The notes under the pieces are model-generated. The model saw only the letters and a program-made list of their open reading frames with translations. It had not been told where the DNA came from and did not search any database. Positions 42,894 through 59,007 of a stretch of DNA of 64,000 bases are shown here, piece by piece (position 1 is the first letter of the stretch; every line of letters starts with the position of its first letter). The translations under genes and the position numbers were made by a program. The DNA is taken from positions 569 through 64,568 of the forward strand of contig CAYIDD010000001.1 in the NCBI GenBank assembly GCA_964362175.1. Direction: 5' to 3'. Source of the stretch: an uncultured Candidatus Saccharibacteria bacterium. Its GTDB lineage: Bacteria; Patescibacteriota; Minisyncoccia; Phycocordibacterales; UBA2100.

Positions 42894-43579
42894 GTAAGAT
42901 ATTTATTCTTCACGGATGGACATATCAGACCGAGACGTGGCGATCTCTGCGTGAGATGCTTAAAGAGCGCGGATTGGAGGCCGAATTCCTCCTTATTCCC
43001 GGACTCACCGACGGCACAAATCCGATCTGGACCCTCGACGACTATGTCGAGTGGCTGAGGAGCAGAACTGCGGAATACGGGAAAGTTATTCTCATCGGAC
43101 ATTCCAATGGCGGTCGCATCTCGCTCGCGTTCGCCGAAAAGTATCCGGAAAAAGTCGAACGGCTCATCCTTGAAGACAGCGCCGGCATCCCCGCGATGGG
43201 ATTACGCGCCCTCAAGCGTGATGTATTCAAGGTAATCGCGAAAATCGGAGGTGCGGTCACCAAGTCTGAAGTACTGAGAAAAGTCCTGCACAAAGTCGCC
43301 CGAGAGAGCGACTACCAAAGGGCAACCCCCGAGATGCGCCGCACGATGGCGAATTTGGGATCCGTCGATCTCGGTCCGATCTTTCAGCGGATCAAGGCCC
43401 CCACGCTCATCATATGGGGGGAAAAGGACACCACGACACCGCTTGCAAGTGGAAAAATAATGCACGAAAAGATACGCGGCTCACGGATGGTCGTGATCGA
43501 AGGCGCGCGCCACTCGCCGCACATAACACACACAAAAGAGGTTGCCGACCTCATCACGGAAGAACTTACGCGTCCATGA
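42890..43579 (+). CDS. alpha/beta hydrolase
   Basis: GHSNGG nucleophile elbow, C-terminal His. Start overlaps the upstream stop (ATGA). Confidence 0.7.
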   Translation: MSKIFILHGWTYQTETWRSLREMLKERGLEAEFLLIPGLTDGTNPIWTLDDYVEWLRSRTAEYGKVILIGHSNGGRISLAFAEKYPEKVERLILEDSAGIPAMGLRALKRDVFKVIAKIGGAVTKSEVLRKVLHKVARESDYQRATPEMRRTMANLGSVDLGPIFQRIKAPTLIIWGEKDTTTPLASGKIMHEKIRGSRMVVIEGARHSPHITHTKEVADLITEELTRP

Positions 43580-45798
43580 ATATTTTCAACTCCCTCGGCT
43601 CAAATTACACGCTCTCTTCCGCAATACGGATACTGTTCTCAACGGGTGATACTAGCGCGCAGCAAAAATTGATCGAGTATCTCGAAGCGCGTTACGGCCT
43701 GCCCGGCCAAGGGGGACGAGCGATTCTTACATATAAAGGCCGCGAAGCACTTTTTCTCGCGATTGCGGCACTTCCTCAGGGCGCTATCGCCATCAACGGC
43801 TTTACCTGCCTCGCCGTATACGAGGCGATAACCGAAAATGGACGCGCGGTGCACTACATTGACGTCCCGGAAAACAATCTGAATTTCACGCCCGCATCTT
43901 TCCAGGCCGCGCTCGTGTCGAACCCCGCGATCAAAGCCGTTATCGTTCAGAACACACTCGGTATTCCCTGTGACATACAAACGATCAGATCACTCTGTGA
44001 ACGGCACGGAGTCGCCCTCATCGAAGATCTCGCACACTCTATCGGTACCCGATACTCCACCGGCGAAGAGGCGGGTACTGTTGGAGACTTCGTTGTCCTT
44101 TCGTTCAGTCAGGATAAAGTCGTTGATGCGGTTTCGGGAGGGGCACTCATTATCCGTAACAAAAAGTACGTGGACGCTGTCATTTCTGCGGAGCATGTAC
44201 CAAGCTTGGGTCAGCAACTAAAAGACCGTTTCTATCCGGTACTGACGTGGAAGATCAGGGTCGCGTATGCGCTCGGTATCGGAAAGGCGCTGCATGCGCT
44301 CTTCCGCTCCCTCCATCTCCTTTCCACACCGTTCGGGAAGATGGCAGCGAACGATGCGCATGCATTACCGGGGTGGTATTGCGACATCATTCTGCAGCAA
44401 TACACAGTTCTCGAAAAAACAGCGGCACACCGACGGGAGATCGCGCACATATACGCACAGTACGTGGACAAACGACTGCAGATCCCTGCTGATCTCCAAC
44501 GCTCGACCAATGTGCGATTCCCCCTCCTCGCAAACAATCGCGCAAGCCTGATCAGATTTCTGAAAAAAGACGGTGTTCACGTGAGCGACATTTGGTACGA
44601 CGCCCCCATAGCGCCTAAAAAATATCTGCGCCGTACGGATTACAAGGGGCAGTGTCCCCACGCGGAGCACATTTCAGAAATGATGGTGAACCTGCCGACT
44701 CACATTAATGTCTCTCCGATACACGCACGGACCATTGCCGAATCGGTCAACAAGTGGCTCGTTGAAGGAACGAGCGAATATAGCGTTACGGCCGTCGCTG
44801 ATGAAAATGTGTGGGAAAAATACCTCCGCGCGCAAAAGCCGCACAGTTTTCTGCATGCGTGGAAATGGGGACAACACTACGAGCTTTCCGGATCCAAAAT
44901 ATTCCGCCTTGGCGTTTACCGAGGCGAGACCCTGGTGGCTATTGCTCTCCTCATAAAGATAGAGGCACGCCGCGGCTCCTTCCTTCTGTGCCCGCATGGT
45001 CCGATCGTCGCCGACATCGCACACGAAGAGCCCGTACTACGGGTACTCACCGAGCACTGCGGGCAAATTGCGAAAGATGAGATGTGTGCCTTCATTCGCT
45101 TCTGCCCGCTCGCAAAACCGACCCCAGAAAACGTTATGATATATCATAATTTAGGGTTTCGAAGTGCGCCCATCCATATGCATCCTGAGTTGGCGTGGAT
45201 GTTGGATATCACAAAGCCCGAAGACGAGTTGCTAAAAGCGATGCGAAAAACGACGCGCTACCTCGTGAAAAGAATGGAGAAAGAAGGGGTGGAGGTCGTG
45301 CAGAGCGTTAACCCCGCAGACATTGAAAAGTTTTGGCCAGTCTACGAGGCAACGGTGGAGCGCCAACAATTCATGCCGTTCAGCAAATCCTACCTACAAA
45401 AAGAATTCGAGCTATTCGCCAAAGATAACCAAGCTGCATTCTTTTTCGGAACATATCGAGGCGAGATAATTGCCGCTGCCATTATCATTTTCTACAACGG
45501 GCAGGCGTTTTACCACCACAGTGGTTCTATACAGAAATTCGATGACATTAACGCTTCGTACCTTTTGCAGTGGCGCGTCATACAAGAAGCGAAACGTCGT
45601 GGCTGTACGCTCTACAACTTCTGGGGCATCTCCCCCACCGACCGTCCGCGCCACCCATGGGCCGGCCTTTCACTATTCAAAAAAGGCTTCGGCGGCTTCG
45701 CGGAAAAATACCTCCATGCGCAAGATAAACCCCTTACTGCAAAATATGCGCTCAACTACGTTGTCGAGACCGCCCGACGCTTCCGTCGCGGCTTATAA
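43576..45798 (+). CDS. fusion protein: DegT/DnrJ/EryC1-type PLP-dependent sugar aminotransferase (N) + FemAB-family aminoacyl/acyl transferase (C)
   Basis: the N-terminal half carries HYIDV..N..P..KAVIVQNTLG..D...I..L..RHGVALIEDLAHS ... SFSQDK (PLP lysine). The C-terminal half carries FemAB-like FYHHSGS..QW..I..A...G...YNFWG and KGFGG motifs. Start overlaps the upstream stop. Confidence 0.65.
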   Translation: MNIFNSLGSNYTLSSAIRILFSTGDTSAQQKLIEYLEARYGLPGQGGRAILTYKGREALFLAIAALPQGAIAINGFTCLAVYEAITENGRAVHYIDVPENNLNFTPASFQAALVSNPAIKAVIVQNTLGIPCDIQTIRSLCERHGVALIEDLAHSIGTRYSTGEEAGTVGDFVVLSFSQDKVVDAVSGGALIIRNKKYVDAVISAEHVPSLGQQLKDRFYPVLTWKIRVAYALGIGKALHALFRSLHLLSTPFGKMAANDAHALPGWYCDIILQQYTVLEKTAAHRREIAHIYAQYVDKRLQIPADLQRSTNVRFPLLANNRASLIRFLKKDGVHVSDIWYDAPIAPKKYLRRTDYKGQCPHAEHISEMMVNLPTHINVSPIHARTIAESVNKWLVEGTSEYSVTAVADENVWEKYLRAQKPHSFLHAWKWGQHYELSGSKIFRLGVYRGETLVAIALLIKIEARRGSFLLCPHGPIVADIAHEEPVLRVLTEHCGQIAKDEMCAFIRFCPLAKPTPENVMIYHNLGFRSAPIHMHPELAWMLDITKPEDELLKAMRKTTRYLVKRMEKEGVEVVQSVNPADIEKFWPVYEATVERQQFMPFSKSYLQKEFELFAKDNQAAFFFGTYRGEIIAAAIIIFYNGQAFYHHSGSIQKFDDINASYLLQWRVIQEAKRRGCTLYNFWGISPTDRPRHPWAGLSLFKKGFGGFAEKYLHAQDKPLTAKYALNYVVETARRFRRGL

Positions 45799-47770: not shown

Positions 47771-48727
47771 TCAAAGTTCCGAAATAATGCGGGCGATCTT
47801 TTCCGAATCGTGGCGCGCAATATCAGCCTCCGAGAAAAAGTCTCCGGTGATTATCTTCTCCGTGTACTGCGAGAGAGCCTCGTCGCATTCCATGGGATAC
47901 TTCTTCTCTTTCTCGTATGCGGCCGCGAGTTGCGGGTTCATCTTTTGCGTGTTGCATATCACGTAATCAAATTTTTTGAGGCCGCTGTATCGCAAAAGCT
48001 CTTGTACCATATCGGAGGCCTTAAACCCGTGCGTCTCCCCCCACTTGGTCATCAAATTGCATATCACGATCTTCTTTGCAGTGCTCGCGGCAAGCGCCTC
48101 TTTCATACCAGTCGTCGCAAGTGTCGGCACAAGAGATGAATAGAGGTCGCCGGGGCCGATAACAATGAGGTCGGCCTCGCGGATCGCTGTATCGGTCTCT
48201 TCGTAGATATGCGCAGGCGGATCGAGGAATATCTTTTTGATCCGCAGGTTGCCATCGTGTTTTGGGATGTCGATGTTAGTCTCCCCCACGATCTCAGAAC
48301 CATCCTCAAGAGTGGCGTGCACATGCGATCTATCGAGTGAGACCGGAAGAACTTTGCCCTTTATATTAAGAAGTTCGGAGGCTTTGCGGATGCCCTCTAT
48401 CTCGCCGCCATAAATGGCGGAAAGCGCCGCGAGAAAAAGGTTGCCGAAACTGTGTCCGCTGAGCGAACTATTCCCGTTCTGAAAACGATAGTTGAGAAGT
48501 TCGCGAAGAATTTCCGCTTGCCCCTCATCTGCGAGAGCCAAAAGCCCGCGCCGCACATCACCCGGAGGCAGAATGCCGAATTCGTCGCGCAGCACTCCAG
48601 CCGACCCGCCCGAATCGAACGAGGTGAATACTGCGGTGATATCGAGTGGAAATTCTTTTAGGCCGCGCAGTAAGGTATAGCCACCGCTGCCTCCCCCGAT
48701 CCTAACGACCTTCTTCCCTTTGGTCAT
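47771..48727 (-). CDS. YvcK/CofD-like (UPF0052, gluconeogenesis factor family)
   Basis: VVRIGGGSGGYTLLRGL N-terminal Gly-rich motif and family-typical length. Confidence 0.8.
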   Translation of the reverse strand: MTKGKKVVRIGGGSGGYTLLRGLKEFPLDITAVFTSFDSGGSAGVLRDEFGILPPGDVRRGLLALADEGQAEILRELLNYRFQNGNSSLSGHSFGNLFLAALSAIYGGEIEGIRKASELLNIKGKVLPVSLDRSHVHATLEDGSEIVGETNIDIPKHDGNLRIKKIFLDPPAHIYEETDTAIREADLIVIGPGDLYSSLVPTLATTGMKEALAASTAKKIVICNLMTKWGETHGFKASDMVQELLRYSGLKKFDYVICNTQKMNPQLAAAYEKEKKYPMECDEALSQYTEKIITGDFFSEADIARHDSEKIARIISEL

Positions 48728-48770
48728 GATTGGGAAACTCTATACCCTAGCCGCGACCTTGGCAACGACT

Positions 48771-49364
48771 TTATCGAGCGGATACGCCAAATTTCTTAAG
48801 CTCGGCGACGACATCCAAAAGCGGCAGACCGGCAATATTATTGATATCTCCGTCCGTCTTTTGTATCAATTTCGCTCCGCCTCCCTGAACGACATACGCC
48901 CCCGCCGCATTGAGCGGCTCACCCGTAGCCACGTAATCCAGAATCTCTTGTTCAGGCAATTTCCGCATCGTCACGCGGGTCGCAACGACTTTTGCAACCG
49001 ATTTCCCCGTCTTTGAATCCGCGATGGCAAATCCGGTCAGGAGTGTATGTGTTTTTCCGCTCAACATTTTCAACATCTGAACAGCTCGCTTCGGAGTAAG
49101 TGGTTTGCCCAAAAGTTCCCCGCGAAATACGGCAAACGTATCCGCCGCGAGCACGACCGCATCCTTATGCCGTGTGGCTGCCTTTTTCACTTTACCGAGT
49201 GCGAGCGTCCGCGCGAGCACGCGCGGCGAGAGCTTGAGCCCCATGTTTTCTTTGTAGCCACTTTCCTCAACCGTAAATCGGAAACCCGCCTTGGTGAGTA
49301 TGTTTTTGCGCCACGGAGAAGCAGAGGCGAGGATCAATTTTTTCATTTGATTTTGCGAAATCAT
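48771..49364 (-). CDS. maf: Maf-like nucleoside triphosphate pyrophosphatase
   Basis: ILASASPWRKNIL ... conserved Maf motifs. Confidence 0.8.
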   Translation of the reverse strand: MISQNQMKKLILASASPWRKNILTKAGFRFTVEESGYKENMGLKLSPRVLARTLALGKVKKAATRHKDAVVLAADTFAVFRGELLGKPLTPKRAVQMLKMLSGKTHTLLTGFAIADSKTGKSVAKVVATRVTMRKLPEQEILDYVATGEPLNAAGAYVVQGGGAKLIQKTDGDINNIAGLPLLDVVAELKKFGVSAR

Positions 49365-49400
49365 ATCGCGTACCGTCCATTAAAACGCGACCCCCCACTA

Positions 49401-49429
49401 TTGCACACCCGAAGCATTGCTGCTACCAT
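49401..49429 (+). promoter_or_regulatory. sigma70-like promoter (TTGCAC-17-TACCAT) driving the metK leader
   Basis: hexamer spacing only; no experimental support. Confidence 0.3.
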
Positions 49430-49441
49430 TGGCTGACTCCC

Positions 49442-49580
49442 CCCATACGTATCAAGCGTGCGGCGAAGGAACTGACCTTACGCCCCGCCGGCAACCTACT
49501 CGAAGAGCAAGGTGCCCTCAGACCCTAAAAGGGACGATACTTCTCACGAATATCTCCCCTACAGGGGAGATTAATCGTTT
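49442..49580 (+). promoter_or_regulatory. SAM-I riboswitch (aptamer ~49446-49542) plus terminator-like expression platform
   Basis: GUAUCAAG..GGCGAAGGAACUGACC..CGCCGGCAACC..GGUGCC..GAUAC matches the SAM-I consensus (P1 GUAUC/GAUAC). Followed by atctcccct-aca-aggggagat hairpin and TAATCGTTT, 20 nt before the metK ATG. Confidence 0.7.
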
Positions 49581-49592
49581 ACATAATCAGCC

Positions 49593-50645
49593 ATGTTCCA
49601 CTCATTAGAGCGATACACGACAGAGTCCGTAACCTCCGGTCATCCGGATAAAGTGTGCGATCAAATATCAGACGCGATCTTGGATGCCTGCCTCGCACAA
49701 GACCCGAATAGTCGCGTCGCGGTCGAATCATTCGGCAGCCACGGCACACTCATGCTCGGTGGCGAGGTGAAAACGAGCGCGAAAGTAAATTTCGAAAAGA
49801 TCGCACGCAGCGTGTATCGCGATATCGGGTACACTGACACGCTCAAGGTGCTCAATACTATCGCTAGGCAATCCCCCGACATCGCAATGGGCGTCGATAC
49901 CGGCGGCGCGGGAGATCAGGGCATCATGTACGGCTATGCAACGAATGAGACGAAAGAGATGCTCCCGCTCGGAGTCGTCCTCTCACATGCGCTCGCGCGC
50001 CGTCTTGAGAAATTGCGGCGCGACAAAACGCTGAAGTGGCTCAAGCCGGACGGCAAGACGCAGGTCACCATCGCGAATGGAAAAGTTATCACCGCGCTGT
50101 GCTCCACGCAACATGATAAGAAAGTCTCTCAGGAGGAGATCCGCAGGGGGCTCATCAAACATCTCTTCAGGCCGGTCTTGGGCAATTTGAAGGACATCGA
50201 GATCCTCGTAAACCCGACGGGACAATTTATCATCGGCGGCTTCACCGCAGACGCAGGTCTTACGGGCCGCAAGATCATGGTGGATACGTATGGCGGTGTC
50301 ATGCCTCACGGCGGTGGTGCGTTCTCCGGCAAAGACTCGACCAAGGTAGATCGCTCTGCGGCCTACATGTGCCGCTTCGTCGCCAAGAATTTGGTGGCGA
50401 ATGGTTACGCCAAGAAAGCGCTCGTCTCCGTGGCTTATGCCATCGGTCGCATTGAGCCTGTCATGATCGAAGCGTTCGACGAACACGGCAAGAATCTCAC
50501 AAAAATAGTCAGGGAGAACTTCGACTTCCGTCCCCGCGCGATCATCGATCGACTCAATCTCCGCAAACCAATCTTCCGCGAAACAGCCGCCTACGGCCAC
50601 TTCGGTGTGAGTGGTAGACCTTGGGAGAAAATCGTGAAGATTTGA
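49593..50645 (+). CDS. metK: S-adenosylmethionine synthetase
   Basis: GHPDK, GGGAFSGKD and other MetK signatures, full length. Confidence 0.95.
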   Translation: MFHSLERYTTESVTSGHPDKVCDQISDAILDACLAQDPNSRVAVESFGSHGTLMLGGEVKTSAKVNFEKIARSVYRDIGYTDTLKVLNTIARQSPDIAMGVDTGGAGDQGIMYGYATNETKEMLPLGVVLSHALARRLEKLRRDKTLKWLKPDGKTQVTIANGKVITALCSTQHDKKVSQEEIRRGLIKHLFRPVLGNLKDIEILVNPTGQFIIGGFTADAGLTGRKIMVDTYGGVMPHGGGAFSGKDSTKVDRSAAYMCRFVAKNLVANGYAKKALVSVAYAIGRIEPVMIEAFDEHGKNLTKIVRENFDFRPRAIIDRLNLRKPIFRETAAYGHFGVSGRPWEKIVKI

Positions 50646-50722
50646 TCTTCTTGAGCATTGACATCTCTTATTTTTGAGGTACTATTTCCCGAGTTGAAAC
50701 GCTTTAACCGAGAGGTGCTCAC

Positions 50723-51262
50723 GTGAATAGGAAGTTTCCAGCGAAAATCTATCGCGAGGATCCACATCACCGCATTCCGACGGGCTGGCTCGACGATCCG
50801 ACGTATGCCGCCGCGATGACGGGTTTCGTCATCGTCTGCACTGATGCCATGGTCATAGACCGTGTGCGGCGGACGGTGTGGCTCGCAGACAGGACGATCC
50901 TTCCAATGAAAGGGCTCTGGATACTGGGAGGCCGCCGCCTCCCGGGAGAGGCCATAGAGGCGTCGATCCAGCGATGCCTGGAGCGCGAGGCAAGGCTCAC
51001 GTTCGCGCGCGAACGATTCGAGTACCTCACACAGAACGAATACGTGTGGAGCACTCGGCAACAAGAGCCGCGGAACGTCGGCTCGCACAATCTGGCCGAC
51101 ACGTTCGCTATCGAGCTCACGAAAGATGAGCGCGATACCGTATCTCGCTCGCTTACGCCGAAGGAATACAAGCCCGGAGGCCTCCGGGAATTCGATCGGC
51201 AAGGTCTTCGCGATGCCAAGGTGCACCCTGCCCTGCTCGATCTTTACGACTTGGTTTTCTGA
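50723..51262 (+). CDS. NUDIX-like hydrolase with degenerate Nudix box
   Basis: GRRLPGEAIEASIQRCLEREARL partially matches Gx5Ex7REUxEExGU. Sits in the metK-glmS variable spacer. Confidence 0.4.
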   Translation: MNRKFPAKIYREDPHHRIPTGWLDDPTYAAAMTGFVIVCTDAMVIDRVRRTVWLADRTILPMKGLWILGGRRLPGEAIEASIQRCLEREARLTFARERFEYLTQNEYVWSTRQQEPRNVGSHNLADTFAIELTKDERDTVSRSLTPKEYKPGGLREFDRQGLRDAKVHPALLDLYDLVF

Positions 51263-51318
51263 CCCGAACAGGGTTGTAAGAGCCATCCGCCGCGCCCGAA
51301 AGGATGCGGCGGCTTTGT

Positions 51319-51593
51319 TTACTCAACAGTGACCGACTTCGCGAGGTTGCGGGGGCGGTCGGGGTTGTAGCCTTTTTCGCGCGAGAAGTAGTAGGAGAAG
51401 AGATGCAGCGGGACGATATTCACTATCGGAGAAAGCATCTCCGTTGTCTTTGGCACATAGATAACGTCGTCGGCAAGCTTTGCGATCTCCGTGTCACCTT
51501 CTGTCGCGACAGCAATGACGTGGCCTTTGCGCGCTTTTATCTGCTGAATGTTGGAGAGCATCTTTTCGTATACGCTGTCATCCGTAGCGATCG
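51319..51593 (-). pseudogene. glmS 3'-terminal fragment (last ~91 codons, no 5' part)
   Basis: 51332-51593 is nucleotide-identical to 53728-53989 of the intact glmS. The last 4 codons and the stop differ synonymously (TAA vs TAG). Confidence 0.85.
51332..51593. repeat. 262-bp perfect direct repeat, copy A
   Basis: identical to 53728-53989. Confidence 0.9.
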
Positions 51594-51760
51594 ACGAACA
51601 CGGCAAGAATCTGACAAAAGTTGTCCGGGAGAACTTCGACTTCCGTCCGCGCGCCATTCAAGACCGCCTCGGCCTCCGCAAACCCATCTTCCGCGAAACC
51701 GCCGCCTACGGTCACTTCGGTGTGAGCGGTAGACCTTGGGAAAAAATAATCAAGATCTAA
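51594..51760 (+). pseudogene. metK 3'-terminal fragment (last 55 codons), diverged copy (~87% nt identity to resident metK 50479-50645)
   Basis: encodes DEHGKNLTKVVRENFDFRPRAIQDRLGLRKPIFRETAAYGHFGVSGRPWEKIIKI. Joined to the glmS fragment at a tcgNcgaac microhomology. Confidence 0.85.
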
Positions 51761-53439
51761 GATTCGCTATTTCCCTCACGGTGGGACCCGACCACTAACG
51801 CAAATACGTTGCCATCCCCTTGAAACTCGGAGTACTTCTCGTCATCAATATTAGGTATATCAATCTCCGTCTGTACAACAGAGTAATCAGCCCCATCCAA
51901 AAATTTATCCGTTGCTTCCCCTATGTAATCGTAATTTGATATCAAAGCCTGTTCAGCATTCACCGAAATCAACGATATCCCCTTTTCTCTCGCCTCAGTT
52001 TCTAACTTAGAAAAGATATTTCGTATCGCGACATCCCAATCAAGCGCGACGGGAATTTGTATGGCATCTAAATGCCAGACTTTCTGTGTCTTGTCATCTT
52101 TTGTTGTTGTCGACAACAGATAGATATTCCCGACATGTTTATTATCAGGATCATATACTTTCACGTTGTAGAGCGGGAGGACAAGGTCGTCAAACGGAAG
52201 AGGGCGCCCGTCCGTGCAGTCACCACTTACGGCCCCAGGATTCCGATCGAGCGTCTCGTCTGGCCTTGCGTCAAGAGTAAATATAGATTTTTTGCCTTCC
52301 ATTCCTCCGTGAACAAGCTGTCGTTGCAGAGATTTGATTTTTCTGTTCAGATACTGCGCAACAGCTTCTGGCCCTAGGAAGAAGGTTGCAACGCCCGCGA
52401 GCAGGCGTTGGTTGAATTCTCGTTTACTCTTGAGTGTTTTGAGTTCGCCGCTCAAAGCTCGTTTTTCTTCGTTCGTGGCGGTCTTCATTCTTTCTCGCAA
52501 TTCGCGCTCCGTGTCCGACGCCAAGGTATGCTCACGAGTCGCATTAAGTGCTTGCGAGATCTGATTGGCATTCAAGAGCTTGTCTGCTGCGCCATGTAAA
52601 TCGTGACGCTCCAGGATCCTTGCGAATAAGCGCTTGCTGATGTCGAAGATATTATTTCCAAACTTTGCCTGTGTCTCATCAGACATTTCGACCGGATAAA
52701 ATAAATCGCCTCCCTGCGGCTGGTTTTCCGTTAGTTTTTGCCAAGACTCTTCTCGATAGAAATCTGGATCCGCCAACTTACCTCGCAGTCGCTCGAGCGA
52801 TTCGTATAGCTCTATTGATGCCTCTCCTGGCCATTTCTCAAAATCATCATCTTCGAAATTGTGCGTGTGCTTTTCTTGGATATCGTGAGGTTTGACCTTT
52901 TCAAACTCTGCGCAACCCTTTCTCACCAAACTCTTCACGCGATCGTAGAATATATCGCCGAGAAATTCATCCAGTTCCTTTGGAGTTACTTGCCCAAGAT
53001 GTTCGAGCATTGCTGGATCTTTGAGCTCTTGCAGGAGAGTGGATAGAGGGCTTCCATCGCCATCTATTTCCTTGATACAAGTTTCAGCTTCAGGGGAGAC
53101 TGCATTTTCCAGTGCTTCTAAGTTACCGAAAAGCAAGTCAACTTCCGAAAAGTCGATACGTCTTCCCATCTTGTTCCCTGATACCTCAAACGAGAGTGTC
53201 TCGAACGGGACATTTTCTTTCTTACGTTCGATTGCTTCCTGTTTTTGTTGTTTTTCTCTTTCGATCTCTCCTATTCTAGATTTTGGAATGATGCGATCGC
53301 CATCTTCGATTCGAGTGTATCCAATTGCCTCCAGGGCTTCGTCGGGGATGTCTCGAATATTCTTGTGTTGGCCCAATAAGTCCTGGATCGTTGGTTGCTT
53401 TTGTCCAGGCGGTCGTACCCTCTCCGGCATGATTTGCAT
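51757..53439 (-). CDS. orphan acidic protein (~560 aa from MQIMPERV; ORF-track frame is 606 aa)
   Basis: long uninterrupted ORF. Its stop overlaps the stop of the metK fragment. TATAAT immediately upstream of the ATG. No recognisable domain. Confidence 0.6.
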   Translation of the reverse strand: MQIMPERVRPPGQKQPTIQDLLGQHKNIRDIPDEALEAIGYTRIEDGDRIIPKSRIGEIEREKQQKQEAIERKKENVPFETLSFEVSGNKMGRRIDFSEVDLLFGNLEALENAVSPEAETCIKEIDGDGSPLSTLLQELKDPAMLEHLGQVTPKELDEFLGDIFYDRVKSLVRKGCAEFEKVKPHDIQEKHTHNFEDDDFEKWPGEASIELYESLERLRGKLADPDFYREESWQKLTENQPQGGDLFYPVEMSDETQAKFGNNIFDISKRLFARILERHDLHGAADKLLNANQISQALNATREHTLASDTERELRERMKTATNEEKRALSGELKTLKSKREFNQRLLAGVATFFLGPEAVAQYLNRKIKSLQRQLVHGGMEGKKSIFTLDARPDETLDRNPGAVSGDCTDGRPLPFDDLVLPLYNVKVYDPDNKHVGNIYLLSTTTKDDKTQKVWHLDAIQIPVALDWDVAIRNIFSKLETEAREKGISLISVNAEQALISNYDYIGEATDKFLDGADYSVVQTEIDIPNIDDEKYSEFQGDGNVFALVVGSHREGNSES

Positions 53440-53465
53440 TATACTCCGGGCTATACTGGAGCACA

Positions 53466-53728
53466 TGGACCTCCTTGAACAACGTGTGCAGAAAATCGAG
53501 CAACGGAACAACTCCGTGGAGATGGATAAGGCTTGGGAAACAAGCTGGACGAGGACAGGGCTCGTCGCCGCATTCACCTACATAACGATGGGTGTTTTTC
53601 TATCATTCATCGACGTCACACGACCGTGGCTCTCGGCGACTGTGCCAACGTTGGGCTTTGTTCTCTCAACGCTCTCGATGCCGTATTTCAAGCGCGCGTG
53701 GGGCCGGAAACGAACTATTCTACGGTAA
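53466..53728 (+). CDS. possible small two-TM membrane protein (87 aa)
   Basis: MDLLEQRVQKIEQRNNSVEMDKAWETSWTRTGLVAAFTYITMGVFLSFIDVTRPWLSATVPTLGFVLSTLSMPYFKRAWGRKRTILR. Overlaps the glmS stop. Confidence 0.25.
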
Positions 53729-55568
53729 CCGACTTCGCGAGGTTGCGGGGGCGGTCGGGGTTGTAGCCTTTTTCGCGCGAGAAGTAGTAGGAGAAGAGAT
53801 GCAGCGGGACGATATTCACTATCGGAGAAAGCATCTCCGTTGTCTTTGGCACATAGATAACGTCGTCGGCAAGCTTTGCGATCTCCGTGTCACCTTCTGT
53901 CGCGACAGCAATGACGTGGCCTTTGCGCGCTTTTATCTGCTGAATGTTGGAGAGCATCTTTTCGTATACGCTGTCATCCGTAGCGATCGCGAACGTCGGG
54001 AAGTTCTCATCTATCATCGCGATCGGTCCGTGCTTCATCTCACCGGCACCGCACCCTTCCGCGTGGATGTACGAAAGCTCCTTCAGCTTGAGCGCACCTT
54101 CGTACGCGATAGGCATGTTGTACTTCCTTCCGATGTACAAAAAATCGCGCACGTGCGCATATTTCCTTGCCAATGCCTCGACCTTCTCCCGCTGATCAAG
54201 AATAGATTGTATCTTCTGAGGCAGAGCCTTCAGTTCACGGGCGACCTCTTTCCCCTCGGCCTCGGACATGCCGCGTTGGCGACCGAGAAAGACCGTAAGC
54301 AGTGCCAGAGCGACAAGTTGCGAGATGAATGCTTTGGTGGAGGCAACGCCGATCTCGGGACCCGCATGATTGTAGACACCCGCATCCGTTTCCCGCGCGA
54401 TCGTGCTCCCCACTGTGTTTACGATGCCGAGCGTGAGGGCCCCATGCCGCCTTCCTTCGCGAAGAGCCTCAAGTGTATCTGCGGTCTCGCCGGATTGCGA
54501 TATGCCGAGCACGATGGTGCGCTCGTTGACGACGGGCTTGCGGTAGCGGAATTCGCTTCCAAGTTCCACTTCAACGGGAATGCCTGCGTGCTCTTCGAGC
54601 ATGTACTCCCCTACCAAGCCCGCGTAATACGCCGTGCCACACGCCACGATGATGATGCGGTCAATTTTTTCTAGCTGCTTCGCGACGCTCTCAAGCCCGC
54701 CGAGTTTCGCAAGACCGGTGTGCGGGATAAGCCGACCACGCAGTGTATTTTCCACCACCTCTGGCCCCTCCATTATTTCTTTCAACATGAAATGTTCGTA
54801 GCCTCCCTTCTGCGCCTCTTCCGCAGTCCAGTCAATATCCGTGGTGTCTCGCTTTACCTTTGAAGAATCCAACTTGAAGATCCTGTGCCCGTCGGGCGAA
54901 ATGACAGCGACATCGCCATCCTCGAGAAAAACGACCTTGCGCGTATGCGGCAGGATGGGCGAGGGGTCGGATGCGATAAAGTGCTCACCGTCGCCGAGTC
55001 CCAACACTATGGGAGAACCCATCCGCGCGGCAATGATGCGGTCAGGCTCTTTTTTATACTGCAGCGCAATGCCGTAGGTACCTCGTACCTCGTTGAGAGC
55101 TGCCAATGCTGCCTCTTCAAATGTTTTCTTTTTTCCTCCGGAGGAGGATCCGCCTTCGGCGGACAAGTGCTCCTCCACGAGATGCGCGAGCACCTCCGTG
55201 TCCGTCGACGATTTGAATTCATGACCGGCCTTCTCGAGCTTACGTTTCAATTCCTTAAAATTCTCGATGATGCCGTTGTGCACTACCCAGATCTCGCCCG
55301 TGGAATCGGAGTGCGGATGTGCATTTGCTTCGGTCGGCTCTCCGTGCGTCGCCCATCGAAGGTGCGCGATACCGCTTTTCCCTTCGAAACCTTTCGGCAT
55401 TTTCTTACGCAATTCGGCGACCGCACCGGGGGTGCGCACACTTCCGCTTTCAGGAGTGTAGATACCCGCAGAGTCGTAACCCCGATATTCGAGCGAAAGA
55501 AGCCCATCCAAAAGGATCCCGCCGGCGTCTTTTCCCCTCTTCCCCGTATACGCAAAAATACCGCACAT
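53715..55568 (-). CDS. glmS: glutamine--fructose-6-phosphate aminotransferase
   Basis: N-terminal MCGIFAY Ntn-hydrolase Cys. Two SIS domains. C-terminal ...KSVTVE. Confidence 0.95.
   Translation of the reverse strand: MCGIFAYTGKRGKDAGGILLDGLLSLEYRGYDSAGIYTPESGSVRTPGAVAELRKKMPKGFEGKSGIAHLRWATHGEPTEANAHPHSDSTGEIWVVHNGIIENFKELKRKLEKAGHEFKSSTDTEVLAHLVEEHLSAEGGSSSGGKKKTFEEAALAALNEVRGTYGIALQYKKEPDRIIAARMGSPIVLGLGDGEHFIASDPSPILPHTRKVVFLEDGDVAVISPDGHRIFKLDSSKVKRDTTDIDWTAEEAQKGGYEHFMLKEIMEGPEVVENTLRGRLIPHTGLAKLGGLESVAKQLEKIDRIIIVACGTAYYAGLVGEYMLEEHAGIPVEVELGSEFRYRKPVVNERTIVLGISQSGETADTLEALREGRRHGALTLGIVNTVGSTIARETDAGVYNHAGPEIGVASTKAFISQLVALALLTVFLGRQRGMSEAEGKEVARELKALPQKIQSILDQREKVEALARKYAHVRDFLYIGRKYNMPIAYEGALKLKELSYIHAEGCGAGEMKHGPIAMIDENFPTFAIATDDSVYEKMLSNIQQIKARKGHVIAVATEGDTEIAKLADDVIYVPKTTEMLSPIVNIVPLHLFSYYFSREKGYNPDRPRNLAKSVTVE
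53728..53989. repeat. 262-bp perfect direct repeat, copy B (within intact glmS 3' end)
   Basis: identical to 51332-51593. Confidence 0.9.
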
Positions 55569-55599
55569 CGAGCCACTTTAGCACGTTTGTCCGAAAAAA

Positions 55600-56637
55600 T
55601 TAACGCAGAATAATGTCGGCGATATCCGCGCGAAAGACGTTGATGGCGGAGCGGATGGAGGTTGCGTCAGGAGGACGCTTTGGGTACGTGCGGTTGGAGA
55701 GAATGACGAACGCAATGCCACGCTCAACATCGCATACGACCGATGTGCCGGTAAAACCTGTTTTGCCGAAAGTGTGTGGGCCGCAGCCTGTACCCATGAA
55801 CCACGGTTGATCGAGCTGCCAACCCAAACCTTTTTGCGCCCCCTCAACAACGTTCGGGTATGTACCCTGCAATAGGCTCTCCAAAAAATTCAAAATATCG
55901 GGGGCCGTTGAGAATAATCCTGCGTGGCCCACGGCTCGATGCGCGCGCGCGAAGACGCGCGCGCTTTCGTCGTGCACGATGCCGCGGATCTCTTCCCCCG
56001 CTTCATCGATCTCTGTTGGTGCCACCCGTACTTTATCGCGGGGGAAAAACGTCGTGTCCTTCATACGAAGCGGCCCGAAGAGATCCTCATTCGCAAGAGC
56101 GGGAAGTATCGATCCCCCGACACGCTCGAGAATTATGCCGAGCAAAAATGCCGGAAGATTCGTATACTCGAACTTCCCCGGTGGAGCGTCGAATCCATAT
56201 GAAAAAATATATTCCGATAGTTCCTCTGGTCTTTTATCTTTAAGAGTCGACATCTGTATCCCGTGTACGGCGTAGGTCAACAGGTGCTCGATGGTCGCCC
56301 CATGATCATTCTGTAGCTCGGGGACATATTTCTTCACCGGATCGGAAAGATCGAACTTTCCCTGCTTCAGGAAATTCAGCGCGAGCGAGGCGGTCGGTAT
56401 CGATTTTGTCACCGATGCAAGATCATACATGGTGTCTTCATGTACCGGTATATCCGCTTCGTATATAAAATGTCCGAAGGGCAACACCTCTCGCTCCCCC
56501 GATTTTTTCACGACACCAATAACGCACCCCGGAAATACTTTCTCCGCAATCGCTTTTTCTGCCCGAACCTTGATATCGCTACGCATCCGGATATGCTTCT
56601 TTAATTTCTTTCGCGAGATACGGGTTCCACATAGCAC
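55600..56637 (-). CDS. serine hydrolase (class C beta-lactamase/PBP4-like fold)
   Basis: SVTKS (SxxK) motif. Length and pattern of beta-lactamase-related esterases. Confidence 0.7.
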   Translation of the reverse strand: MLCGTRISRKKLKKHIRMRSDIKVRAEKAIAEKVFPGCVIGVVKKSGEREVLPFGHFIYEADIPVHEDTMYDLASVTKSIPTASLALNFLKQGKFDLSDPVKKYVPELQNDHGATIEHLLTYAVHGIQMSTLKDKRPEELSEYIFSYGFDAPPGKFEYTNLPAFLLGIILERVGGSILPALANEDLFGPLRMKDTTFFPRDKVRVAPTEIDEAGEEIRGIVHDESARVFARAHRAVGHAGLFSTAPDILNFLESLLQGTYPNVVEGAQKGLGWQLDQPWFMGTGCGPHTFGKTGFTGTSVVCDVERGIAFVILSNRTYPKRPPDATSIRSAINVFRADIADIILR

Positions 56638-57649
56638 CGGTGGCGGTCATCACCACATCAGCCCCCGCATCGCGGTACTCTTTAAAATCCGTAGGGATCG
56701 TCACGCCGCCACTACCGAGAATTGCATACTTCATGCCAAATTCTTCCCGCAAACTCTTGAGGCGCCGCACCATGTCGAGCCCCGCCCACTTGACCGCATG
56801 GCCGCAAATGCCGCTCTTTACCCTGTGTGCGCCGGGGAGTGCCTGCGTGCCATCGGGATTCACGACGGGTGCGGGAATGGTATTTATCGCTGCGAACCCG
56901 TCCACCACGCTGCCAACCTCTCTCACCAATTCCCTGAGGGAGGGCTCATCAAAATACGCTATCTTTATGACGAGTTTTGTATCCCCTATTTTGTTTTTTA
57001 TCGCCTCGGATATTACGCGTACCTTGGGCACATCGAAACAGAGGAGTTGCGCAGCGCCTTCATTGGGACATGAAAAATTTGTCTCGACCACCTTTACCCC
57101 CGTATCCTTGATCATCTGCGCCCCCTGCACCCAATCGTCGATATAATCTTCGGGCGAAAATCCTTCCCACTTGGTGCCCTCAAAACTACACATCACCAAT
57201 TGGCCGGGTTTGGCGTACGCGACGCAATCATGTAAGTCCTTTTGCCAAACGTCGGACTCGTACGAGGGATTGCCGAAGGAGTTGGTGATGGAAAGCGGTT
57301 CCCTGTATTCATTGCGAACGACAACGGGCGTATTCGCCATCTCGAGCGTGAGGTCGCCCTTGATATCCGCGCCCAGCACATTGGGCCACTGATTGGACTC
57401 GCGCGCGCGGCTGCGCACGGTCTTGTGTACCGGTACGTCGAATCCCTTATCGAGCGCCGCCTTCACGAATTTTCCGTTCAAAAGCGGTCCTGCAGGAATA
57501 CCGAGGGGATATGAGAGTTTGTGCCCCAGAAGATCAAACCGTGGTTCCCCTGCGGGCAATACCACCCCATCCACAAAATCGTTGAACGGCCCTTGCTCCC
57601 AATTCTCGGCGTAGGTCTTTGCGGGGTCGAAGAATGGTGCTCGCAACAT
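56579..57649 (-). CDS. dihydroorotate dehydrogenase-family TIM-barrel flavoprotein (PyrD/DPD-like)
   Basis: GIPAGPL.., FSCPN, GSGGV motifs. 3' end overlaps the next gene by 59 nt. Confidence 0.6.
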   Translation of the reverse strand: MLRAPFFDPAKTYAENWEQGPFNDFVDGVVLPAGEPRFDLLGHKLSYPLGIPAGPLLNGKFVKAALDKGFDVPVHKTVRSRARESNQWPNVLGADIKGDLTLEMANTPVVVRNEYREPLSITNSFGNPSYESDVWQKDLHDCVAYAKPGQLVMCSFEGTKWEGFSPEDYIDDWVQGAQMIKDTGVKVVETNFSCPNEGAAQLLCFDVPKVRVISEAIKNKIGDTKLVIKIAYFDEPSLRELVREVGSVVDGFAAINTIPAPVVNPDGTQALPGAHRVKSGICGHAVKWAGLDMVRRLKSLREEFGMKYAILGSGGVTIPTDFKEYRDAGADVVMTATGAMWNPYLAKEIKEAYPDA

Positions 57650-57689: not shown

Positions 57690-58337
57690 CTACGCCGCCT
57701 CCTGAAACTCAACGCGATTCCTGCCCCCCTCCTTCGCTTTGTACAAAGCCGTGTCCGCACGGTCGATCCCCGGTTGGATATCCTCGACACTCGTAACTTG
57801 AGCTACCCCAAAACTCATCGTCACGGGTATGGCCTGTCCATCCCATGGCACCGAAAGTTTTTCTATGCCACTCCGCAATTCCTCGGCCCTCTCTCTCGCC
57901 TGGATCTTATCGCCATCCATGAAGAGGATGATGAACTCTTCTCCTCCCCAGCGCGCAACGATGTCAGTGCCGCGCACACGATCTTTTAGGTATGCCCCCA
58001 TGCTTCGCAAAACCTGGTCTCCCGCAGAATGACCCTTGGTGTCGTTGATGTTTTTGAATTTATCTATGTCCATGAGAACGACCCATGCGGTCCTCACAGG
58101 AGCGTCCCCCTCTCTCTGACTTTTTTCAATGTTGACGAGCTCTTTCTGCATACGATCTTCGAAGGCGCGGCGGTTGGGCAACTCGGTGAGTACGTCGGTC
58201 TCAGCCTTTTCCGCGAGCCCCGCTACTTTTTCCTGAAGTTGCGCGCTTCTCCGCTTGAATATCTGTGCCTCGCGCATCGCCTTGACGGCCTTGGCATCAT
58301 ATTTCCCCCTTCCTCCTTCCATGCTGTCCTCGCTCAT
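57690..58337 (-). CDS. GGDEF-domain diguanylate cyclase (no sensory domain)
   Basis: RWGGEEFIILF active-site motif. N-terminal coiled coil. Start at MSEDSME. Confidence 0.8.
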   Translation of the reverse strand: MSEDSMEGGRGKYDAKAVKAMREAQIFKRRSAQLQEKVAGLAEKAETDVLTELPNRRAFEDRMQKELVNIEKSQREGDAPVRTAWVVLMDIDKFKNINDTKGHSAGDQVLRSMGAYLKDRVRGTDIVARWGGEEFIILFMDGDKIQARERAEELRSGIEKLSVPWDGQAIPVTMSFGVAQVTSVEDIQPGIDRADTALYKAKEGGRNRVEFQEAA

Positions 58338-58359
58338 ACAAAAAAGTGTACCGCAAAAC

Positions 58360-59007
58360 TTACCTCCCCGCACTCGGTACCTTCTCCCACTTATTCGCCT
58401 TCATGTGCCATGCCGCTGGACTGGCCTTTTGTATCTTGTTCCACATCTTTTTTGCCGTTTTCGTGTAAAGTTTGGTATCGCGCACGAATTTCCGCATCTT
58501 TTTCCACTTGGCGGGAAGTTTGTGTCCCTGCTCCTCGTATTCTTTCAACTCGATATCGATATCAAGGTTATCCGCGTCTTTCACGATCTTGGCCTCAATG
58601 GAATCGCGCTCTGCATACTTCATGAGCACATTTTCCAGATCGCCAAGCGTTGTGTCCTCGAAAAGGTCGTGTGCAGCACGCGCCTCGTCGCTCTTTGAAT
58701 ACACTTTGTGGACATATGCCATGTCGGCAGTGCGCGTCTCCGCAATATCGTGCACGAGTGCCATCCGGATAATAGTATTCTCGTCGCCTCTTTTTTCCTC
58801 GCGGGCGATCATGAGCGCGAGGTATATAACACGAACGGTGTGTTCCCAATTGCTGGCGACCGGCACCCCAAGGTGTTGTATCCACGCCCGCGGTATAAAA
58901 CGGGCCGAGCCGATCTCAAACAGAAATTCGAGATCACGGCTTTTTCCGCCGAAGACGGATCCGCCTTCGGCGGACACGTGAGATGATCCTTTCCCGACGG
59001 GATCCAT
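58360..59007 (-). CDS. HD-domain phosphohydrolase (YfbR-like 5'-deoxynucleotidase type)
   Basis: H..LVHDIAE..TAD HD motif. Not an HD-GYP. Confidence 0.65.
   Translation of the reverse strand: MDPVGKGSSHVSAEGGSVFGGKSRDLEFLFEIGSARFIPRAWIQHLGVPVASNWEHTVRVIYLALMIAREEKRGDENTIIRMALVHDIAETRTADMAYVHKVYSKSDEARAAHDLFEDTTLGDLENVLMKYAERDSIEAKIVKDADNLDIDIELKEYEEQGHKLPAKWKKMRKFVRDTKLYTKTAKKMWNKIQKASPAAWHMKANKWEKVPSAGR

Follow-up and report, generated by a model that had tools for sequence, protein, structure and literature searches.

Enzymes of the GNAT fold bind the thioester of their acyl donor at strands beta4 and beta5 and helix alpha4. One structural relative, the N-acyl amino acid synthase FeeM, which we take to be a member of the LuxI-like acyl-carrier-dependent branch of this fold, uses acyl carrier protein (acyl-ACP) rather than acyl-coenzyme A (acyl-CoA) as donor, and in ICL2 of Mycobacterium tuberculosis a GNAT-like domain that acts as a sensor follows an N-terminal isocitrate-lyase barrel. 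As to how accessory genes enter a chromosome, homology-facilitated illegitimate recombination and Campbell-type integration of foreign DNA have been described for naturally transformable bacteria. Here we describe ORF560, an open reading frame (ORF) of 560 amino acids (aa) located between metK and glmS in a 64,000-nucleotide stretch of an uncultured Candidatus Saccharibacteria bacterium (contig CAYIDD010000001.1), called the window throughout; coordinates refer to the window unless a contig is named. Taken as a whole, the locus is best explained by an acyl-transfer enzyme of the GNAT fold, encoded by a stand-alone accessory gene that lies in the recombination scar of two spacer versions, a reading to which we give an even chance of being right.

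Predicted structure

The gene and its domains are as follows.

51757..53439, minus strand: coding sequence of ORF560, stop codon included (ORF and sequence, 162 homologue clusters, dN/dS 0.13, AlphaFold2 pLDDT 92)
52315..53439, minus strand: N-terminal domain, aa 1-375, modelled by AlphaFold2 as mostly alpha helices plus two small beta hairpins, specific to the ORF560 family
51760..52314, minus strand: C-terminal domain, aa 376-560, with the predicted GNAT fold at aa ~384-549 (domain model with pLDDT 90.6, and Foldseek)

An AlphaFold2 model of the full-length protein, built from an alignment of 118 sequences (alignment A1), reached a pLDDT of 92 and a pTM of 0.86 and consists of two tightly packed domains. 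As the Foldseek search with the full-length model gave a weak result, residues 372-560 were modelled alone, using a separate alignment (A2). The secondary structure elements predicted for the C-terminal domain (E, strand; H, helix) are E384-390, short helices and a loop, E423-429, E435-446, E453-461, H468-485, E490-494, H504-516, E521-526 and E544-549, that is, beta1, short helices and loop, beta2-beta3-beta4, alpha3, beta5, alpha4, beta6 and beta7. This order matches the GNAT topology, although the alpha1/alpha2 region retains just two short helices, with a long loop. When the domain model was compared with the PDB by Foldseek, all of the 50 top matches were GNAT-fold structures (probability 0.94-1.00, most ~1.0), including SACOL1063 (5jq4, E 3e-4), FeeM (2g0b, E 3.5e-4), NatD, the ICL2 C-terminal domain, SpeG, RimI and Naa50, and the top matches in the viral structure library BFVD were generic acetyltransferases. 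An initial sequence-only reading of this DNA had found no motif that it could assign in the protein; that statement is superseded for the C-terminal third, which is predicted to form a GNAT-fold domain.

Several results weigh against a GNAT-fold acyltransferase. The Foldseek matches of the C-terminal domain are modest (E 3e-4 to 1e-2, TM 0.4-0.55, identity ~10%), and none of the sequence comparisons reached a GNAT family: Pfam searches with 39 members of the C-terminal domain at E<=10 returned scattered single matches and no GNAT match, the PDB profile search with this domain was empty, and an hhalign comparison of the domain family with Escherichia coli RimI (a sequence verified to be identical to 5isv_A) was non-significant, at a probability of 1.2%. 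The Q/RxxGxG/A signature of GNAT motif A is absent from the protein (regular expression [QR]xxGx[GA]), so that CoA-dependent catalysis is not assured. Finally, the N-terminal domain (aa 1-375) has no assignable fold, and no PDB entry matched it credibly when the full-length model was searched with Foldseek; profile matches of the full-length protein to helical or coiled-coil PDB entries (AfTRAX, ApoE, 14-3-3) were rejected as compositional bias. We therefore regard the assignment of the C-terminal domain to the GNAT fold as well supported by the predicted structure, without a sequence-level link to any GNAT family. The predicted combination of a helical domain with a divergent GNAT domain carrying an invariant cysteine loop characterises an undescribed family.

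Conserved residues and proposed function

Three conserved segments stand out in the C-terminal domain.

52192..52227, minus strand: loop SGDCTDGRPLPF (SGDCTxGxPLPF), aa 405-416, near-invariant in alignments A1 and A2, predicted as coil with pLDDT >90
52051..52077, minus strand: WHLDAIQIP, strand beta4 and the following loop, aa 455-463, with W455, H456, A459, Q461 and P463 conserved in the alignments
51922..51942, minus strand: ISNYDYI, aa 500-506, start of alpha4, with S501 invariant and N502 nearly so, at the position topologically equivalent to that of GNAT motif B

The loop holds the conserved residues Asp407, Cys408 and Thr409 and occupies the place of GNAT alpha1/alpha2, which is the acceptor-binding side. 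Further conserved positions are N494 at the end of beta5, N425, K427, G437, N438 and Y440 on beta2/beta3, and Q540. In GNATs, motif A sits in the beta4-alpha3 loop, where it binds the pyrophosphate of CoA, while motif B supplies an Asn in contact with pantetheine and a Tyr that serves as general acid. After beta4 the family consensus reads QIPxxxDW, with no conserved glycine where motif A would be expected. At the position of motif B, S501 and N502 are followed by Y503 and Y505, and hhalign aligned the S-N of RimI with the S-N of the family within the same non-significant alignment (probability 1.2%). In the model, the nearly invariant residues thus cluster on beta4, on beta5, at the start of alpha4 and in the acceptor-side loop, and the domain is likely to be active.

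Acyl transfer is the most likely function that the predicted fold suggests. The GNAT domain would accommodate a thioester donor in its beta4/beta5 cleft (WHLDAIQIP, ITVN, ISNYDYI) and pass the acyl group on to an acceptor that would be positioned by the SGDCTxGxPLPF loop together with the helical domain, and Cys408 with His456 and Asp/Glu458 are candidate catalytic residues. Since the pyrophosphate-binding motif is missing, the donor may be held otherwise than acetyl-CoA is in classical GNATs. The use of acyl-ACP by FeeM fits a GNAT fold that lacks the classical CoA pyrophosphate loop; to our knowledge Patescibacteria generally lack fatty-acid synthesis, which makes acyl-ACP an uncertain donor here.

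Carried further, the same features would describe a new enzyme class on the GNAT scaffold that dropped the CoA loop, gained the Asp-Cys-Thr loop and uses Cys408, His456 and Asp/Glu458 as a covalent set. Such an enzyme might work with a non-classical donor or by acyl-enzyme chemistry on a substrate taken from the host, for instance a protein, a lipid or a cell-wall precursor, and might have spread horizontally among ultra-small episymbionts as a factor for host interaction or scavenging. We consider this extended proposal speculative and improbable.

A different reading of the same domain is that it is non-catalytic, a ligand-sensing or scaffolding module comparable to the C-terminal acetyl-CoA-binding domain of ICL2, in which case the protein would be a regulator or adaptor. 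ICL2 chains are indeed the top full-length Foldseek matches and recur in the domain search, the canonical cofactor loop motif is absent, and the catalytic GNAT families have no detectable sequence similarity to ORF560. However, Asp-Cys-Thr, His456, Asn494, Ser501-Asn502 and Gln540 are near-invariant around the expected active-site cleft at an overall identity of 25-40%, a residue pattern more typical of catalysis than of a scaffold, and there is neither an enzymatic partner domain nor a conserved partner gene that such a module could regulate. A non-catalytic role therefore strikes us as unlikely.

Gene and protein family

ORF560 is a real gene under selection. It is uninterrupted on the minus strand and encodes 560 aa from the ATG at 53439, with a maximum of 606 aa from a GTG at 53577. 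A second ATG at 53430 would give 557 aa and is the start used in the NCBI annotation of the matching contig. The closest homologue (P0002, 81% identity) opens with the same N-terminus, MQ(I/T)MPE(R/K)V, and the 5' extension of the longer frame overlaps a conserved gene for an 87-aa protein on the opposite strand, so the extension is noncoding. Together with the NCBI call these points indicate that the 560-aa protein is the real product and the 606-aa version is not; the length of about 600 aa given in the sequence-only reading was thus too long.

The promoter is less clear. The sequence-only reading had placed a TATAAT immediately upstream of the ATG, and the hexamer is indeed present and conserved in relatives, but it overlaps the first ATG and lies upstream, by 7 nt, of the second one only.

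53438..53443, minus strand: TATAAT hexamer, seen in the sequence and identical in the related contigs L006 and L007

At the start of ORF560 we found no complete sigma-70-type promoter and no -35 partner for this hexamer, which may be the -10 box of a leaderless mRNA.

The encoded protein, which would be soluble, is acidic (pI 4.9, 63.6 kDa; E 10.4%, D 8.4%, K 7.1%) and also rich in leucine. Searches of its sequence found no P-loop, HExxH, CxxC or GxGxxG (Rossmann) motif, no transmembrane (TM) segment (maximum Kyte-Doolittle mean over 19 residues 1.3) and no signal peptide. This bears out the earlier description of a clean ORF ending at 51757, rich in Glu, Asp and Lys, without P-loop, HExxH or TM segment, as does the GDCTDGRPLPFDDL segment, which corresponds to aa 406-419.

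The protein had also been called an orphan, which holds for curated libraries only: with the full-length protein there was no credible match in Pfam, NCBIfam, PADLOC or PHROGs, and a word-indexed search found just 9 relatives. An exhaustive phmmer scan of 1.84 billion representatives, by contrast, recovered 162 homologue clusters at 50% identity, 118 of them at E<1e-30, nearly all of 520-620 aa and aligned end to end. A profile search with the C-terminal domain gave only fragments of the ORF560 family, and the helical domain occurred in no other detected architecture. Scanning GTDB species genomes with one conserved peptide pattern yielded 18 loci, whose titles refer to Saccharibacteria/Saccharimonadales, Staskawicz-, Giovannoni-, Gribaldo-, Peri- and Doudnabacteria, to unclassified Patescibacteria and, for a few metagenome-assembled genomes (MAGs), to Gammaproteobacteria, Methanosarcinales or Nanoarchaeota. 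For a phylum as large as the Patescibacteria the family is rare, and we found no description of it in the literature. It appears to be an undescribed, sparsely distributed family found mainly in MAGs of Patescibacteria (candidate phyla radiation, CPR).

Several homologues come from MAGs titled 'Methanosarcinales archaeon' or 'Gammaproteobacteria' (L021, L024, L025, L014, L016 and L018), with a GC content of ~32-43%. In the 'archaeal' MAGs the neighbouring genes that were checked are bacterial-looking (in L024 ffh outscores SRP54_euk, and L021 has a CshA-like helicase) or uninformative, so we claim only a Patescibacteria-centred distribution and no presence in archaea (DPANN). In L016 an S9 gene is followed by small ORFs with the sizes of those in a bacterial ribosomal-protein cluster. 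The archaeal and gammaproteobacterial titles of these MAGs are probably wrong, as the content, where checked, appears bacterial or CPR-like.

Selection, composition and gene neighbourhood

Relative to the orthologue in L006, which is the 81%-identical P0002, the ratio of non-synonymous to synonymous substitution (dN/dS) is 0.13 in both domains, and the whole protein is therefore under purifying selection. The GC content at third codon positions (GC3) of ORF560 is 0.47 versus 0.65-0.68 for its neighbours, with the same pattern in L006, and in 16 of 19 loci the GC3 of the family member is below that of its neighbours, the gap often amounting to 2-3 standard deviations. The low GC3 is thus also a compositional signature of the family, beyond the 64-kb window. 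Disrupted copies occur at four of the 18 genome loci (L012, L013, L014 and L025).

L012:7402 and L013:4339: single in-frame nonsense codons (TAG or TAA)
L014:6978-8681: fragmented family gene
L025:7920-8309: 90-aa C-terminal remnant

These copies suggest that the gene is frequently lost. A different kind of interruption is seen in the homologue at L023:663-2207, where several in-frame TGA codons are the only interruptions and the alignment runs through them, suggesting a UGA-recoding lineage rather than a pseudogene.

Synonymous divergence from L006 (dS) is 0.79 for ORF560 and 0.57 for the 87-aa gene, compared with 2.5 for the flanking glmS and 1.9 for metK. The dS of this pair is about three times lower than that of the flanks, which implies that the pair was exchanged after the lineages of the window and L006 had split. 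Low GC3, disrupted copies and a cassette younger than its flanks together lead us to the view that ORF560 behaves as a stand-alone accessory gene that appears to be horizontally exchanged.

All-against-all clustering of ORFs over 20 loci linked only the ORF560 family itself, so that no conserved operon partner was found. Over ~25 loci the flanks are heterogeneous and mostly housekeeping, with PolX, ribosomal proteins (S9/L13), PolA, HIT, MazG, malic enzyme, PAP2, DHFR/ThyA, holA and a sugar transporter. Occasional neighbours are a type IV secretion system (T4SS) coupling protein, a Cas2-like ORF and a toxin-antitoxin (TA) module, of the helix-turn-helix and SocA_Panacea kind, with an IS1595 transposase.

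These exceptional neighbours (one homologue each) are among the points in favour of an anti-phage defence protein or a toxin/effector in a chromosomal hotspot, the role for which the sequence-only reading had named ORF560 a candidate. So are the patchy, accessory distribution of the gene, its low GC3, the young cassette and the variable locus. Against it stand the empty PADLOC search, the lack of a conserved partner or immunity gene, the predominance of housekeeping neighbours with no defence-island context over the ~25 loci, the failure to find relatives in phages, plasmids or viral contigs and the absence of a signal peptide or TM segment. We conclude that the defence or toxin idea is not supported, and judge it decidedly improbable. 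An origin from a phage or plasmid was likewise rejected: tblastn searches of phages and plasmids with ORF560 gave no match, pattern matches in IMG/VR were not confirmed, and BFVD contributed just the generic acetyltransferases.

The metK-glmS spacer

ORF560 is part of a unit of 2,396 bp that has the 3' end of glmS at both boundaries, as direct repeats of 274 nt. The resident metK occupies 49593-50645.

53716..53989, minus strand: repeat D1b, the 3' end of the intact glmS (gene 53715-55568), from a repeat search; its last 12 nt and the downstream sequence are of the L006-type allele
51320..51593, minus strand: repeat D1a, in which 274 nt of the glmS 3' end recur as a displaced copy, 262 nt of it identical to D1b
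50468-50650 and 51583-51765, plus strand: repeat D2, 183 nt of the metK 3' end, 84% identical; the second copy is the metK 3' fragment
51583..51593, no strand: junction of the glmS and metK fragments, where GCGATCG(CGAAC) of glmS and GCGTTCG(ACGAAC) of metK form an imperfect microhomology
53465..53728, plus strand: gene of an 87-aa two-TM protein (MDLLEQRV...DKAWETSWTR...), 80% aa identity at the same position in L006 and L007, dN/dS 0.20
50723..51262, plus strand: ORF179, Nudix-like, with a weak Pfam NUDIX match (E 0.0035, below the curated cut-off), the alternative content of the metK-glmS spacer

The two glmS repeats differ by four synonymous changes in the last four sense codons, beyond which their downstream sequences are unrelated: D1b continues into L006-type sequence, with the 87-aa gene and then ORF560, whereas D1a is followed by a GC-rich hairpin and then by ORF179, which it meets at the 3' end. 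Compared with the resident metK, the metK stub has 15 synonymous and 4 non-synonymous codon differences among 55 homologous codons. Because these differences are mostly synonymous, the stub diverged within a working gene of another lineage, and decay of a metK fragment in situ was rejected. The stop codon of ORF560 (CTA on the plus strand, 51757-51759) overlaps the TAA of the fragment (51758-51760), as the sequence-only reading had noticed.

L006 and L007 (~80% nucleotide identity), whose alignment with the window breaks off precisely at 51593, carry no repeats here: glmS is followed by the 87-aa gene and ORF559, and then by a complete metK that converges on ORF559, the stop codons of the two overlapping. 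The earlier proposal that the gene was convergent with metK in its donor is borne out by this arrangement. The description of ORF560 as cargo of an insertion stands in so far as the gene lies within the repeat-bounded unit, but not as to the gene itself, which occupies the same place without repeats in L006 and L007. Similarly, what had been called an insertion hotspot is a variable, recombining spacer with two contents in tandem, a low cassette dS and a foreign-looking GC3, but without mobile-element machinery: ORF, Pfam and repeat scans of 51320-53989 revealed no transposase, integrase, Tn7-like ends or inverted repeats, and an Rfam scan of 48000-57000 no RNA family.

Our reading is that the metK-glmS spacer would exist in at least two versions, and that in the window the ORF560 and ORF179 versions have been joined in tandem. 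One join would be illegitimate, by microhomology between glmS position -274 and metK position -183, and the other a homologous exchange in the glmS 3' end, which together would leave the 274-nt glmS repeat and the metK stub without a mobile-element enzyme. The route could be Campbell-type integration of a circularised fragment or homology-facilitated illegitimate recombination. The 262 nt of perfect identity next to an 84%-identical metK stub suggest either conspecific parents, one with an earlier cassette import, or a glmS segment duplicated from the recipient. In this lineage, ORF560 and the 87-aa gene appear to form a two-gene cassette in the metK-glmS spacer that is younger than its flanks.

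Two points detract from this reconstruction. The scar fits either order of events and either spacer version as the resident, and the tandem structure rests on metagenome assemblies of a single site, the Hainich groundwater well H43. An ENA contig from this well (L001) is 99.99% identical to the window, and the same 113,413-bp contig is available from NCBI (JBBUER010000001.1, GCA_038056835.1). The tandem of metK and glmS fragments could therefore be an assembly chimera of two co-existing strains, one with ORF560 and one with ORF179. The restriction of all evidence to assembled metagenomes from this one well would agree with a chimera, as would the fact that other assemblies break inside D1, as strain bubbles also do. 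However, the microhomology at the junction of the two fragments amounts to only ~3-7 nt, much less than the k-mer of any assembler, and k-mers across the junction must therefore exist in the reads. The 113,413-bp contig and a second contig both show the arrangement (the longest contig of the cluster has 132,299 bp), and where contigs end, they do so ~k nt (42-67 nt) inside the identical stretch of D1, as a true repeat of 262 nt would lead one to expect. We thus consider an assembly chimera unlikely, and markedly so, and retain the tandem of two spacer versions as our reading.

Other features of the spacer and the window

The 87-aa ORF had been pointed out as a possible two-TM ORF on the strand opposite to ORF560, and it proves to be a real gene, with 80% aa identity in two related contigs. 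It is divergent from ORF560, with ~25 nt between the start codons, and its 3' end overlaps the glmS stop codon by 14 nt. Its GC3 of 0.64 is host-like, unlike that of ORF560, and its product has a weak PnuC-like match in PHROG (E 0.006). The gene stands beside ORF560 in this lineage only and is absent next to homologues elsewhere.

ORF179, too, is a real gene, encoding a Nudix-like protein with a degenerate Nudix box (GGRRLPGEAIEASIQRCLEREARL). Homologues were found at 67, 60 and 43% identity, one of which carries PF00293; the more distant homologues are not syntenic. No strain with metK-ORF179-glmS and without ORF560 was found, all other contigs ending inside repeat D1. In the ENA/MGnify annotation its place is taken by a 231-aa ORF on the opposite strand (50591-51286), probably a spurious call; the NCBI annotation has ORF179. 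The displaced glmS stub is separated from the 3' end of ORF179 by a GC-rich hairpin (51281-51313, CCGCCGC...GCGGCGG), which a simple terminator scan missed and which is probably a bidirectional terminator of the ORF179-type spacer allele.

Elsewhere in the window, two further loci drew our attention.

43414-45798, plus strand: protein of ~740 aa with a DegT/DnrJ/EryC1 aminotransferase domain fused to two FemAB-type domains (precomputed Pfam)
57690-58373 and 58360-59007, both minus strand: a GGDEF-domain protein adjoining an HD-domain protein, in a small Patescibacteria genome

In the first of these, the domains are combined in a way that is unusual for a protein of cell-wall or sugar modification. 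The neighbouring GGDEF and HD genes hint at signalling of the cyclic-di-GMP type.

Significance

The genomes of Patescibacteria are dominated by proteins of unknown function, few of which have been tied to any fold. For one such family there is now a confident two-domain model, with a GNAT-type scaffold and candidate catalytic residues, which makes biochemical tests possible. Furthermore, the locus offers a natural example of accessory-gene exchange in uncultured bacteria, without recognisable mobile-element genes at the site: alternative metK-glmS spacers would have been stacked by a microhomology junction and a homologous crossover, and the stubs record the event. Neither point overturns current views; they are of value because the family is new and defined and the recombination scar is well resolved.

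Comparison with described systems

Several known systems were considered for the locus and set aside. A Tn7-like element at attTn7 was rejected, as the repeats enclose only ORF560, the 87-aa gene and the metK stub, with no inverted repeats; Tn7 makes a 5-bp duplication just downstream of the glmS stop codon and carries tnsABC(D/E)-type genes, whereas here 274 nt of glmS coding sequence are duplicated. An integrase-borne island in the 3' end of a gene, which would bring its own tyrosine or serine integrase, was rejected because 51320-53989 holds no integrase-like ORF or Pfam match and the other boundary is a microhomology junction; typical att cores are also much shorter than the 274-nt repeat with its 262 identical positions. 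The defence systems of PADLOC-DB gave no match for ORF560, ORF179 or the 87-aa protein, and the neighbourhoods are mostly housekeeping, the exceptions being one Cas2-like and one TA-like. GNAT toxins of type II TA systems (TacT/AtaT/KacT) have ~160-180 aa and an adjacent antitoxin, in contrast to ORF560 with its 560 aa, obligatory N-terminal domain and no conserved small neighbour, and were rejected as well.

Homology-facilitated illegitimate recombination comes closest to the scar, sharing with it one microhomology junction, one stretch of perfect homology, and a direct repeat and donor-gene stub left behind. It differs in that the scar, from which alone the mechanism is read, shows a duplication of the 262-274-nt anchor and not a deletion.

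For the protein, the C-terminal domain of M. tuberculosis ICL2 (6edz/6ee1; Rv1916, 8g8k) is the best full-length match (E 5e-3), and as in ORF560 the GNAT-like domain is attached to a protein that is larger and partly helical. The isocitrate-lyase barrel of ICL2 has no counterpart in ORF560, the global superposition is poor (TM 0.15, rmsd >30 A), and the ICL2 domain is a sensor, whereas the conservation pattern of the ORF560 family looks catalytic. FeeM (2g0b) is the second-best structural match (TM 0.47); unlike ORF560 it is a single-domain protein of ~190 aa, and the two have no sequence similarity.

With GNAT enzymes such as SACOL1063 (5jq4), NatD/Naa40 (4ua3), RimI (5isv) and SpeG (6e1x), the C-terminal ~170 residues share the same order of strands and helices (Foldseek probability ~1), and the conserved residues of ORF560 lie at the same elements, beta4, beta5 and alpha4, that hold the donor thioester in these enzymes. 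Unlike them, ORF560 has only ~10% identity, no match to the profiles of the GNAT clan (Pfam Acetyltransf_*, NCBIfam) and no Q/RxxGxG/A loop, carries short helices and an invariant cysteine loop in place of alpha1/alpha2, and is fused N-terminally to a helical domain of 375 residues. Thus, although by sequence it falls in no described GNAT family, the predicted structure of ORF560 is most like that of a GNAT-fold acyltransferase.

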